From assembly GCF_988243305.1 (NCBI RefSeq), contig NZ_OZ547136.1: a stretch of DNA of 64,000 bases, one strand, 5' to 3'. Below are positions 1,495-46,930 of the stretch, piece by piece. Position numbers and translations under genes: made by a program. Position 1 is the first letter of the stretch. The number at the start of each line of letters is the position of its first letter. The notes under the pieces are model-generated. The model did no database searches. It was not told the origin of the DNA and saw only the letters and a list, made by a program, of their open reading frames with translations.

Positions 1495-1616
1495 GATTTC
1501 GTCCTTTTTAAGGTGGTTATTTACACCTTAGCGCAAAGCGGACGTGGTTCCTACTGGAGTGCGCATAACGAACACAAGCACTTCCCGTGGATAAATTGAA
1601 AACGAAAGATCAAAAA

Positions 1617-1706
1617 AAAAGCCAGCACCCGGCTGGCTAAGTAATACTGGAAGCAATGTGAGCAATGTCGTGCTTTCAGGTTCTCCGCGAGGGTCTTCCT
1701 GATCGC
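1617..1706 (-). ncRNA. ryhB: RyhB small RNA (Fur-repressed iron-sparing sRNA)
   Basis: Minus strand reads GCGATCAGGAAGACCCTCGCGGAGAACCTGAAAGCACGACATTGCTCACATTGCTTCCAGTATTACTTAGCCAGCCGGGTGCTGGCTTTT, matching the recalled RyhB sequence; ends in a GC hairpin plus T9 terminator; sits between yhhX and yhhY as in K-12. Confidence 0.9.
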
Positions 1707-1709
1707 AAG

Positions 1710-1730
1710 ACAATAATAATCATTCTCATT
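1710..1730 (-). promoter_or_regulatory. Fur box overlapping the ryhB promoter
   Basis: AATGAGAATGATTATTATT on the minus strand, immediately upstream of the RyhB 5' end; resembles the GATAATGATAATCATTATC consensus. Confidence 0.6.
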
Positions 1731-1828
1731 CGCACTTGTCCAACACTTTTTGCAAAAAAAATGCATTTGACTCGCATTTGAAAGTCAATGATGTTGAAAG
1801 GGACATTTACCCCAAAGAGGACAAAGGA

Positions 1829-2317
1829 ATGAGTGAGATAGTGATACGCCATGCTGAAACGCGCGATTACGAGGCCATCAGGCAGATTCACGCCCAGCCG
1901 GAGGTGTATTGCAACACGCTACAGGTGCCTCATCCTTCCGATCATATGTGGCAGGAGCGACTCGCCGATCGTCCCGGCATCAAGCAACTCGTCGCCTGTA
2001 TTGATGGAGACGTCGTGGGCCATCTCACCATTGACGTGCAACAGCGCCCACGCCGCAGTCATGTTGCAGATTTTGGTATTTGTGTCGACTCCCGTTGGAA
2101 GAATCGCGGCGTCGCCAGCGCCCTGATGCGAGAGATGATTGAAATGTGCGACAACTGGTTGCGGGTAGATCGTATTGAGCTAACGGTGTTCATCGATAAC
2201 GCGCCAGCAATTAAGGTCTATAAAAAATTTGGATTTGAGATTGAAGGGACTGGCAAGAAGTACGCATTACGTAATGGTGAATATGTCGATGCGTATTATA
2301 TGGCGCGGGTGAAGTAA
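1829..2317 (+). CDS. yhhY: GNAT-family N-acetyltransferase
   Basis: ATG at 1829 preceded by AAAGGA; 162 aa starting MSEIVIRHAETRDYEAIRQIH; the ORF-track start at 1736 is probably an upstream extension. Confidence 0.85.
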   Translation: MSEIVIRHAETRDYEAIRQIHAQPEVYCNTLQVPHPSDHMWQERLADRPGIKQLVACIDGDVVGHLTIDVQQRPRRSHVADFGICVDSRWKNRGVASALMREMIEMCDNWLRVDRIELTVFIDNAPAIKVYKKFGFEIEGTGKKYALRNGEYVDAYYMARVK

Positions 2318-10823: not shown

Positions 10824-10845
10824 AGTTAAACTCTTCGTGTTGTGT

Positions 10846-10990
10846 TCCCCTCACCCCGGCCCTCTCCCCAAAGGGGCGAGGGAGAAAGGCGGTGCATACT
10901 TTCCCACCGAGCGAAGTTGCAAACCGACACGGCACCTGGATACCACGCCGATCGGTCCCCTCTCCCTTTGGGAGAGGGTTAGGGTGAGGG
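10846..10990. repeat. Pair of inverted GC-rich REP-like extragenic palindromic elements between ugpA and ugpB
   Basis: 10846-10890 ...CCCTCACCCCGGCCCTCTCCCCAAAGGGGCGAGGGAG and 10955-10990 GTCCCCTCTCCCTTTGGGAGAGGGTTAGGGTGAGGG in opposite orientation; a third copy lies at 30131-30172. Confidence 0.6.
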
Positions 10991-10998
10991 TAAGAGAA

Positions 10999-12315
10999 TT
11001 AAGACTTCGTAGACTGCTCAAAGCGGCGCAGTAACTGGTTCCCACGCTCAACGGCGGTATCCAGTGCCTGCTGTGGTGTCTTCTTACCGGTCCACACGCT
11101 CTCCAGCTCTTCATCCACAATCACGCGGATCTGCGGCATGTTGCCCAGACGCAGCCCTTTGGTGAACGGTAACGGCGGCTTATTCAGCATCTGACGCGTC
11201 GCGGTATCCGCCCCTGGGTTTTTCTCATAAAAACCCTGCTCACGGGTCAGGTCATACGCCGCTTTGGTGATTGGCAGATAACCAGTTTTCTGATGCCACT
11301 CGGCAGCGTTTTCTGGCTTCGCGAGGAAGTCGAGGAACTTCGCCACACCCGTATAAGTTTCTTTATCTTTACCCTGCATTACCCACAAGCTGGCTCCGCC
11401 GATAATGGCGTTTTGTGGCGCATCTTTCGCATCGGCGTCGTAAGGCATCATGCCTACGCCGTAGTTAAATTTGGCGTACTCGCGAATGTTGGCAAGAGAA
11501 CCGGAAGAGGCGGTGGTCATCGCGCAATCACCGTTATAGAACTTCTCAGTGGATTCATCCTTACGCCCGACGTAGCTGAAATCGCCCTTCTTGTTCATCT
11601 CTTCGAGCATAGCGATGTGTTTCACCTGCTCCGGCTTGTTGAACTCCAGCACCGCGTCTGTGCCGTCAAAGCCGTTGTTTTTGCTGGCAAACGGCAGACC
11701 GTTCCAGGCGCTAAAGTTTTCCAGTTGGATCCAGCCCTGCCAGCCGCTGGCGTAGCCGCACTTCATACCGGAGGCTTTCAGTTTTGCGGCATAGTCCGCC
11801 AGATCCTGCCAGGTTTTCGGCGGCTGTTCCGGGTCTAAACCGGCTTTCTTGAAGGCGTCTTTGTTGTAATAGAGAACGGGAGTCGAGCTGTTGAACGGCT
11901 GGGAGAGTAAGTGGCCGGTTTTGCTGTCGGAGTAGTAGCCTGAAACCGTCGGCACAAACTGCGACTCATCGAACTGAATCCCCGCCTCTTTAAACACGTC
12001 ATATACCGGTTTAATGGCCTTCGACGCCATCATGGTGGCGGTGCCAACTTCATAAACCTGCAAAATAGCCGGCGCGTTGCCGGTACGAAATGCGGCAATC
12101 CCCGCGCTTAAATTCTGTTCGTAGTTGCCTTTATAGGTCGGTACAATTTTGTAATCCGGGTTTTCGGCGTTAAAACGTTGGGCCAGAGAATCCACCTCTT
12201 TACCCAGTTCCCCTTCCATAGAATGCCAGAACGGAATGGTCGTCACTGCCTGTGCATTCCCCATTAACGCCAGTCCGAGCGCCAGTGCTGAAGCTGTATA
12301 ATGTAACGGTTTCAT
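10999..12315 (-). CDS. ugpB: sn-glycerol-3-phosphate periplasmic binding protein
   Basis: 438-aa ORF with signal peptide, matching UgpB. Confidence 0.95.
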
Positions 12316-18672: not shown

Positions 18673-19056
18673 ATGAAGCTGACCATCATTCGATTAGAAA
18701 ACTTTAGCGACCAGGACCGGATTGACCTGCAAAAGATCTGGCCGGAGTATTCCCCTTCCTCTTTACAGGTTGACGATAACCACCGTATCTACGCCGCGCG
18801 TTTTAACGAGCGCCTCCTAGCGGCCGTGCGGGTAACCTTAAGCGGCACCGAGGGGGCACTGGATTCTCTACGTGTGCGGGAAGTCACCCGCCGTCGCGGT
18901 GTGGGGCAATATCTGCTGGAAGAGGTTTTGCGTACCAATCCTGGCGTTTTAGGCTGGTGGATGGCGGATGCTGGCGTGGAAGATCGCGGTGTGATGACGG
19001 CGTTTATGCAGGCGCTGGGGTTTACGGCACAACAGGGCGGCTGGGAGAAGCGTTAA
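18673..19056 (+). CDS. panM: PanD maturation factor (PanZ/PanM)
   Basis: 127-aa ORF MKLTIIRLENFSDQDRIDLQKIW... matching E. coli PanM/YhhK. Confidence 0.9.
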   Translation: MKLTIIRLENFSDQDRIDLQKIWPEYSPSSLQVDDNHRIYAARFNERLLAAVRVTLSGTEGALDSLRVREVTRRRGVGQYLLEEVLRTNPGVLGWWMADAGVEDRGVMTAFMQALGFTAQQGGWEKR

Positions 19057-19580
19057 TCGCTCTGTGTAAAAAGCAGTTCAATGGATTTGGTTGGGAAAAA
19101 TAACGCATTTTCGTTTTCTCCGACCAGCGGGATAAAGCCCAGCGACTGATAAAACGTATGGGCTTTTTCATTCAGCGCCTCGACAAAAAGACCGTGAATA
19201 CCTACCGCTAAAGAGGCTGACCAGACGACTTTCATGGCATGAGCAACCAGTGTTGCTCCCCATCCCTGTCCCTGTAATGAACGATCAATTGCCAGACGCC
19301 CAAGAGTGACGCTGGGAATATTTTTGTAGGGAATTTTTTTCTGTTTCGATTTCGAGGGCAATGCGGCTCGTTCAAAACAACTGCCGGATAATGTGTAATA
19401 TCCCAGGACCTGACGTTCTGGAGTGTTGCGACAAAGGATATACGCTCGCAGAATTTTATTGCGATGTTGACGAATCAGATGTGCCGTCAGAAAGAGATTT
19501 AACGCTTCCTCGCCGCAGTCGAATCGCTGTAGATCATAATCTGCATCATCGGTCAGAATCTCTATCGTCAGATCATCCAT
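19053..19580 (-). CDS. ataT: GNAT-family acetyltransferase toxin of a type II TA system (AtaT/TacT/ItaT family)
   Basis: 175-aa ORF MDDLTIEILTDDADYDLQRFDCGEEALN...; immediately downstream of a DUF1778-like gene; resembles AtaT of E. coli O157 as recalled. Confidence 0.75.
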   Translation of the reverse strand: MDDLTIEILTDDADYDLQRFDCGEEALNLFLTAHLIRQHRNKILRAYILCRNTPERQVLGYYTLSGSCFERAALPSKSKQKKIPYKNIPSVTLGRLAIDRSLQGQGWGATLVAHAMKVVWSASLAVGIHGLFVEALNEKAHTFYQSLGFIPLVGENENALFFPTKSIELLFTQSD

Positions 19581-19586
19581 AAATGA

Positions 19587-19853
19587 TTACATTCCCTGAA
19601 GACGTTTTGTCGCACGTTTTAGCTTTTCACCTGGCGACGGTGGATTACTCAGCGCATCCATCACCCGCGTCCAGGATTCCTCATTGAGGATCACCCGCCG
19701 ATGCTGTTCAATCACTTCCGCAGCCCGCTGCGAAGCGCTGTTCAACATAAATTGGCTGACGGACTGATTAGATATCGCTGCCGCTTCCTCAATCATACTT
19801 TTGTCATCGTCAGTTAAACGCAGATCGATACGCTGCTTTTTAACAGCAGACAT
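19587..19853 (-). CDS. ataR: DUF1778 antitoxin (AtaR/TacA family)
   Basis: 88-aa ORF MSAVKKQRIDLRLTDDDKSMIEEAAAISNQSVSQF...; upstream of and co-oriented with the GNAT toxin gene. Confidence 0.75.
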   Translation of the reverse strand: MSAVKKQRIDLRLTDDDKSMIEEAAAISNQSVSQFMLNSASQRAAEVIEQHRRVILNEESWTRVMDALSNPPSPGEKLKRATKRLQGM

Positions 19854-37638: not shown

Positions 37639-40441
<2,803 letters not shown>

Positions 40442-40639
40442 CACCTCCCAACGCGCCGTTATTTCCTGACGGCGCAGTAGACTTCTGCCAAATATCGACT
40501 CACGTCACATTTTTTTGATCACGATTTGGTCCCTCAAAATGTGAGACGCTTCGATCCTCTTTTTCTCCCGTTCACCTACTATACGCTTGAAGTTGTCCAT
40601 GATTGTCCATAGACAACTGTAAATGTTCAGGTGCGCGCC

Positions 40640-46298: not shown

Positions 46299-46658
46299 TT
46301 ATAAATGATTCAAACGCTCATTCAGTGTTTCAATAATATAGGTATTTACAGAGACTTGTTGCTGCGCAGCCGCATTATTAAGGCGTTCACTCAGCGATTC
46401 TGGATAGCGTAATGTAAAGGTCTTAATCTTTTCTGTACGCGCATACGGCTCAATACCCGCAGCTTTACAATCCTCAAGATACTCTCGCAGGGAAAGCTCC
46501 CCTTCTTTTTGCAGCCCCTGAATGCTGTCAGAGACAAAATCACAATAACCTGACAAGCCCAGGAATTTGCCACGAAATGCATTCAGTTCTGGCACGTAAG
46601 TGATAACTGCAGGTTGCCCGGCAATCTCCATAGAGTTTGGTGTCTTCAGTTTGATCAT
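46299..46658 (-). CDS. hicB: HicB-family antitoxin (UPF0150 domain plus C-terminal ribbon-helix-helix)
   Basis: 119 aa; C-terminus TFTLRYPESLSERLNNAAAQQQVSVNTYIIETLNERL is RHH-like; 4-bp overlap with the upstream toxin gene. Confidence 0.7.
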   Translation of the reverse strand: MIKLKTPNSMEIAGQPAVITYVPELNAFRGKFLGLSGYCDFVSDSIQGLQKEGELSLREYLEDCKAAGIEPYARTEKIKTFTLRYPESLSERLNNAAAQQQVSVNTYIIETLNERLNHL

Positions 46659-46930
46659 GGTTTTACCCCTATACTTAGTAACCAGTCACGCACGCTTTCT
46701 ACAGCGCCTTTATCGGTATCTGGCGACGGATGAGGCCGATGGAAACACGCAACGCTCATATTTAGTATGAACTTACAACGCGAACCTCTTCCTTCCTTAA
46801 TTTCTCCGCCTAATGCTTTAACCAGTGACTCTATATCAGACCACTTAATCCCTTGAGGAACAGGAGATTTAAATATTTGATCCAATGTATTTTTTTGTTT
46901 CTTCCGTAAAGCCTGTACCTGGGTTCTCAT
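46655..46930 (-). CDS. hicA: HicA-family (YcfA-like) toxin
   Basis: 91 aa; LVKALGGEIKEGRGSRCKF...FHRPHP...VRDWLLSIGV fits the HicA pattern; lies upstream of the antitoxin gene as in hicAB. Confidence 0.6.
   Translation of the reverse strand: MRTQVQALRKKQKNTLDQIFKSPVPQGIKWSDIESLVKALGGEIKEGRGSRCKFILNMSVACFHRPHPSPDTDKGAVESVRDWLLSIGVKP

Follow-up and report, generated by a model that had tools for sequence, protein, structure and literature searches.

The 64 kb window, i.e. the whole stretch of DNA analysed here, almost certainly carries the chromosomal, canonical ryhB gene of an Escherichia coli strain, which specifies a Fur-repressed, Hfq-dependent, trans-acting and iron-sparing sRNA. The gene resides on the minus strand (1612-1706) between yhhX and yhhY and is identical to its counterpart in E. 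coli K-12 over its complete length. It is a real but ordinary copy of an already known gene and nothing about it alters the current understanding of RyhB.

Identity and extent of the ryhB gene

Alignment of the whole intergenic region places the 95 annotated nucleotides of K-12 ryhB (b4451; NC_000913.3, 3580922-3581016) on positions 1612-1706 of the window with 95 of 95 positions identical. The 5' end (+1) is the G at 1706 on the minus strand. The classical 90-nt RyhB RNA extends from there to 1617, and the b4451 annotation reaches 1612, the last T of the terminal run; read from 1706 to 1612, the minus strand is GCGATCAGGAAGACCCTCGCGGAGAACCTGAAAGCACGACATTGCTCACATTGCTTCCAGTATTACTTAGCCAGCCGGGTGCTGGCTTTTTTTTT. 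When the entire window was compared with Rfam 15, RyhB (RF00057) was the sole match (1613-1677, minus strand; 83.1 bits against a gathering score of 55, E = 3.6e-14). The match spans model positions 1-67 of 67 and is not truncated, and the full-transcript alignment revealed that the 5' part of RyhB lying outside the Rfam model is identical to K-12 as well. The original prediction of a 90-nt RyhB on the minus strand had named alignment to K-12 ryhB and a search with the Rfam covariance model as ways of checking it; both were carried out and both bear it out, down to the 90-nt end at 1617. A permissive Rfam scan of the 64 kb yielded no second match at E <= 0.5 and ARAGORN detected neither tRNA nor tmRNA in the window, so RyhB is the only recognisable non-coding gene by these two tools. 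Its earlier description as the main non-coding gene of the window holds as far as Rfam and ARAGORN show.

Six-frame translation delivers three open reading frames that overlap ryhB (1551-1766, minus strand, 71 aa; 1528-1713, minus strand, 61 aa; 1665-1781, plus strand, 38 aa), from which one could suppose that the region encodes a small protein. We attach next to no probability to this reading. It is ruled out by the lack of an ATG in the RyhB transcript, by an RNA-type conservation across genera, in which an exact 27-nt core sits beside a compensatory stem and indels are not multiples of three, and by RefSeq, where not a single CDS is annotated at ryhB in the sampled genomes. Moreover, the start of the 71-aa frame lies upstream of the promoter.

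Promoter and Fur box

The canonical sRNA gene is preceded by a sigma-70-like promoter on the same strand, consisting of a -35-like hexamer TGGACA (1742-1737), which is identical in K-12, an 18-nt spacer and a -10-like hexamer TATTAT (1718-1713); the promoter as a whole scores 10 of 12 matches. The -10 hexamer ends 7 nt upstream of the +1 G, and a simple promoter scan of positions 1450-1900 found no other sigma-70-like site on either strand. Matching against the palindromic 19-bp Fur consensus GATAATGATAATCATTATC uncovered a Fur-box cluster at 1709-1733 that overlaps the -10 hexamer and thereby the core promoter, as is characteristic of promoters in the Fur regulon. The best 19-mer (1709-1727) agrees with the consensus at 16 of 19 positions on the plus and at 15 of 19 on the minus strand; it is the only Fur match with three or fewer mismatches on both strands of the 64 kb, and shuffles lead one to expect 0.01 such matches. 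Further registers overlap it at 1715-1733 (14/19) and 1712-1730 (12/19), and together these putative sites make up a staggered array that is typical of Fur sites. Work on K-12 by Chen et al. (2007, PMC2189734) placed a Fur site of 25.2 bits at -15 of ryhB, one of four that are clustered within 31 bp, and a gel shift confirmed that Fur binds. The cluster in the window is the same as in K-12 throughout, including all of 1709-1733, apart from position -1, and Fur control of the promoter is predicted via this K-12-identical site.

Similar arrangements recur well beyond E. coli. Among 78 loci from other genera that contain the exact RyhB core and offer enough upstream sequence, the best Fur-consensus match in the 150 nt before the core scores 14/19 or better in 75, a score reached by only 0.13% of 1560 control windows taken from the same loci; the Fur-like sites are mostly found 53-72 nt before the core. 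A Fur-box-like sequence over the promoter had been proposed at the outset, and that proposal is upheld by a 16/19 match far beyond chance, by the K-12 gel shift and by this conservation. The region then assigned to sRNA and Fur box (1617-1735) does contain these features. Its start at 1617 is the end of the classical 90-nt RNA and therefore takes in only four of the nine T residues of the terminator, and the -35-like hexamer (1737-1742) falls just outside.

Position -1 of ryhB (1707, minus strand) is a T in the window, whereas K-12 and the majority of E. coli have a C, as seen in the alignments. From the -35 hexamer to the 3' end of ryhB, window and K-12 differ nowhere else. The 64 nt covering promoter and 5' segment (1685-1748) are identical to the window in 394 of 5405 complete E. 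coli genomes (~7%) and the other genomes sampled differ at one base over this segment, as K-12 does; the -1 T is therefore a natural minority allele. Position 1707 sits at the edge of the Fur-site cluster. Counted over the aligned 334-nt yhhX-yhhY spacer, the remaining differences from K-12 are a T run ~50 nt before +1 that comprises 8 T (1756-1763) instead of 7, and one substitution plus a single-nucleotide indel in the part that leads from the terminator to yhhX.

Terminator and putative Hfq-binding module

At its 3' end the gene has a Rho-independent terminator (1612-1638, minus strand) that was recognised by a terminator scan as well as in the minimum free energy (MFE) fold. The hairpin AGCCAGC-CGGGT-GCTGGCT (1638-1620) combines a G+C-rich stem of 7 bp, five of them G-C pairs, with a 5-nt loop and leads into a run of nine T (1620-1612), the first of which closes the stem, in agreement with the terminator hairpin and T9 run originally described. 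When 69 sequences, 59 of them distinct, were aligned, 98.3% pairing was retained in the stem, and both sides have changed at three of the seven pairs (A-U to G-C or C-G). The observed covariation score was reached by none of 500 shuffles and slid registers performed far worse. The changes in the stem are compensatory, and covariation backs the terminator stem. The MFE fold reproduces the terminator and leaves the A/U-rich stretch AGUAUUACUU unpaired and most of the core weakly structured. For the whole RNA, the MFE has a z of -0.67 versus shuffles, a value often seen in sRNAs whose seed is unstructured, and one that speaks neither for nor against the assignment.

A terminator with a long U tail that is preceded by an A/U-rich stretch is characteristic of Hfq-dependent sRNAs, and we infer that the terminator region is an Hfq-binding 3' module. 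Hfq binding and dependence are known for K-12 RyhB (PMC4509938), and the same dependence is probable for RyhB from the window, judging from its sequence identity to K-12.

Conserved core and predicted pairing with sodB

RNA nucleotides 34-60 form the conserved RyhB core GCACGACAUUGCUCACAUUGCUUCCAG (1647-1673, minus strand), which contains the target-pairing seed. Within it, nucleotides 38-46 (GACAUUGCU; window 1669-1661, minus strand) are complementary to positions -4 to +5 of sodB (AGCAAUGUC) in nine of nine Watson-Crick pairs that span the start codon, the partner in this comparison being K-12 sodB; the sodB gene of the source strain lies outside the window. No exact complement of RyhB to sodB -60 to +40 is longer than this 9-mer. 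RNAduplex assigned -35 kcal/mol to full-length RyhB and the same sodB segment, and 57 of 1000 dinucleotide shuffles were as good; for long RNAs, a fold that admits intermolecular pairs only is not informative. As the full-length duplex is not significant, the evidence for pairing comes from the exact 9-mer together with published work: Geissmann and Touati in 2004 and Vecerek et al. in 2003 reportedly described RyhB-sodB pairing with which the 9-mer agrees.

A variation of the seed was noted in E. coli 23AR0151 (NZ_CP195448.1, 310684-311026), where a 9-nt tandem duplication ACATTGCTC is present inside the RyhB seed, aligned to window positions 1653-1669. A near-repeat thus occurs three times in this strain versus twice in the window and in K-12, which would lengthen or double the target-pairing region.

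Proposed mode of action

The mode of action that we propose takes its steps from the literature on RyhB, reportedly established by Masse and Gottesman in 2002 and by Masse et al. in 2003 and 2005, and the part contributed by the window consists of K-12 identity, promoter geometry, Fur box, terminator and seed. When iron is plentiful, Fe2+-Fur would occupy the box over the -10/+1 region and block RNA polymerase. When iron becomes scarce, Fur would leave the site and the RyhB RNA of ~90 nt would be transcribed and then bound by Hfq via its U tail and the adjacent A/U-rich stretch. The seed would pair around the translation start of mRNAs that encode non-essential iron proteins, with sodB, sdhCDAB, acnB, fumA, ftnA, bfr and others as probable targets, and pairing would lead to a block of translation and coupled decay by RNase E, such that iron is spared. 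A few targets, e.g. shiA and cirA, would be activated instead.

Neighbouring genes and possible readthrough into yhhX

Downstream of ryhB and on the same strand lies yhhX (457-1494), encoding an oxidoreductase of the GFO/IDH/MocA family of 345 aa according to the ORF list, Pfam and the RefSeq annotation of matching DNA. On the other side, yhhY (1829-2317, plus strand) is transcribed divergently and encodes a GNAT N-acetyltransferase of 162 aa (RefSeq annotation, Pfam PF00583). The placement of ryhB between divergent yhhX and yhhY, assumed from the start, is thus confirmed by Pfam and by the RefSeq annotation of near-identical DNA, and this context is the same in K-12 and in other Enterobacteriaceae.

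The vicinity of yhhX raises the question of whether the main task of the promoter is Fur-regulated transcription of a ryhB-yhhX operon, with the sRNA as its terminated 5' product that acts as a leader or attenuator in addition to its function in trans. The distance to yhhX on the ryhB strand is only 117 nt, the linkage is kept in 16 loci from Enterobacteriaceae, and a simple scan revealed no sigma-70-like promoter in the stretch that separates the terminator from the start of yhhX (1495-1611), although a scan of this kind, based on the consensus, has little power to detect promoters that are weak or not of the sigma-70 type. Morita et al. (2015, PMC4509938) reported that transcription frequently continues past the ryhB terminator, and described co-transcription of yhhX as suspected but not shown. 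The terminator is, however, strong in form (7 bp, five G-C pairs, T9), termination was reported to rise under iron depletion, just when the ryhB promoter fires (PMC4509938), and outside the Enterobacteriaceae RyhB occurs without a downstream yhhX. We therefore regard an operon promoter as the main role as rather unlikely, and even such an operon would complement the role of RyhB as a trans-acting sRNA and not replace it. Between the ryhB terminator and yhhX, a weak second terminator-like hairpin is located at 1589-1573 (minus strand).

Returning to the canonical sRNA gene, yhhY may share the Fur-bound control region with ryhB. A rather unlikely and clearly speculative prospect is that the ryhB promoter drives iron-responsive yhhX expression by readthrough and affects yhhY via the shared Fur-bound spacer, and that the C-to-T change at -1 shifts start-site use, Fur occupancy or RyhB output.

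Distribution and copy number

The ryhB locus is present in 5424 of 5426 complete E. coli genomes, always on the chromosome and with a median of one copy, and 5277 complete genomes share at least 99% identity over the 134 nt of promoter and gene. Beyond E. coli, the exact 27-nt core was detected in at least 120 sequence stretches from Enterobacterales, Aeromonas, Vibrionaceae and Zobellella, often twice per genome. The divergent yhhY-ryhB pair is found in more than 30 loci of other genera and reaches Yersinia, Serratia, Rahnella, Pantoea, Mixta and Hafnia, with the yhhY start ~150 nt upstream of the RyhB core, while yhhX is linked downstream within the Enterobacteriaceae only. In Salinivibrio costicola (10920-11253), two copies of the RyhB core are arranged in tandem, 307 nt apart, and a Fur-like site precedes each of them.

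Many genera possess the exact core at two loci, and in a small number of E. coli genomes as many as three places match, so that the copy in the window could in principle be a second, paralogous RyhB-like locus comparable to Salmonella RyhB-2/IsrE or to one of the two copies in Yersinia, Serratia and Photorhabdus. This is extremely improbable. The copy is situated between yhhX and yhhY exactly like K-12 b4451 and has the identical sequence, a single copy is the norm in E. coli, and the window contains one Rfam match only. Synteny and copy number rule out a paralogue.

Annotation and other features of the window

As a master regulator, RyhB controls iron use at the post-transcriptional level, and the value of the copy described here is one of annotation only. 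In the RefSeq/PGAP records of every non-K-12 E. coli sampled, ryhB is unannotated; among the records inspected, K-12 MG1655 alone has an ncRNA feature. As the PGAP tables lack a ryhB feature, a track based on open reading frames would miss RyhB.

Over 62.6 kb, the window aligns collinearly with E. coli strain Z1323HEC0462, with an identity of ~98%. Adjoining yhhY, the segment 2552-4221 encodes a 392-aa protein with an N-terminal type VI secretion system (T6SS) Hcp domain (YhhZ; TssD in RefSeq), followed with a 4-nt overlap by YrhA, a 164-aa protein without a Pfam match. YhhZ and YrhA look like a pair of Hcp-fused effector and immunity protein. Two type II toxin-antitoxin systems, ataR/ataT with a GNAT toxin between livJ and panM (19053-19853, minus strand) and hicA/hicB adjoining yhhJ (46299-46930, minus strand), are 98-100% identical to strain Z1323HEC0462. 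Compared with the same strain, the ugpB-ugpA spacer (10824-10997) contains ~77 nt of additional G+C-rich inverted repeat of the CCCTCTCCC...GGGAGAGGG type, and ~1.5 kb with a DUF3829 gene are absent beside nikR at about 40439-40444.

Comparison with known systems

The closest relative is RyhB from K-12 (b4451; RF00057), which agrees with the gene from the window in its 95 nt, flanks, orientation, -35 and -10 hexamers, Fur box and terminator, and differs in the C at -1, one T fewer in the upstream run and the two spacer changes near yhhX. Second RyhB copies in enterobacteria, which in Salmonella we take to be named RyhB-2/IsrE/RfrB and which are represented by RyhB2 in Yersinia, Serratia and Photorhabdus, likewise feature the 27-nt core, an upstream Fur box and an intrinsic terminator; in contrast, they reside elsewhere in the genome without yhhY and yhhX and have other 5' parts and Fur-box distances. 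RyhB from Vibrionaceae (e.g. Vibrio cholerae, >200 nt) shares the exact core and a Fur-like site ~60-70 nt before it but not the yhhX/yhhY synteny, and in the Photobacterium and Aliivibrio loci the sequence behind the core does not run straight into a terminator but goes on into additional structure, as would suit a longer RNA. PrrF1 and PrrF2 from Pseudomonas and FsrA from Bacillus, which to our knowledge have no sequence homology to RyhB and are not members of RF00057, are functional analogues, that is, Fur-repressed sRNAs that lower the mRNAs of iron proteins.
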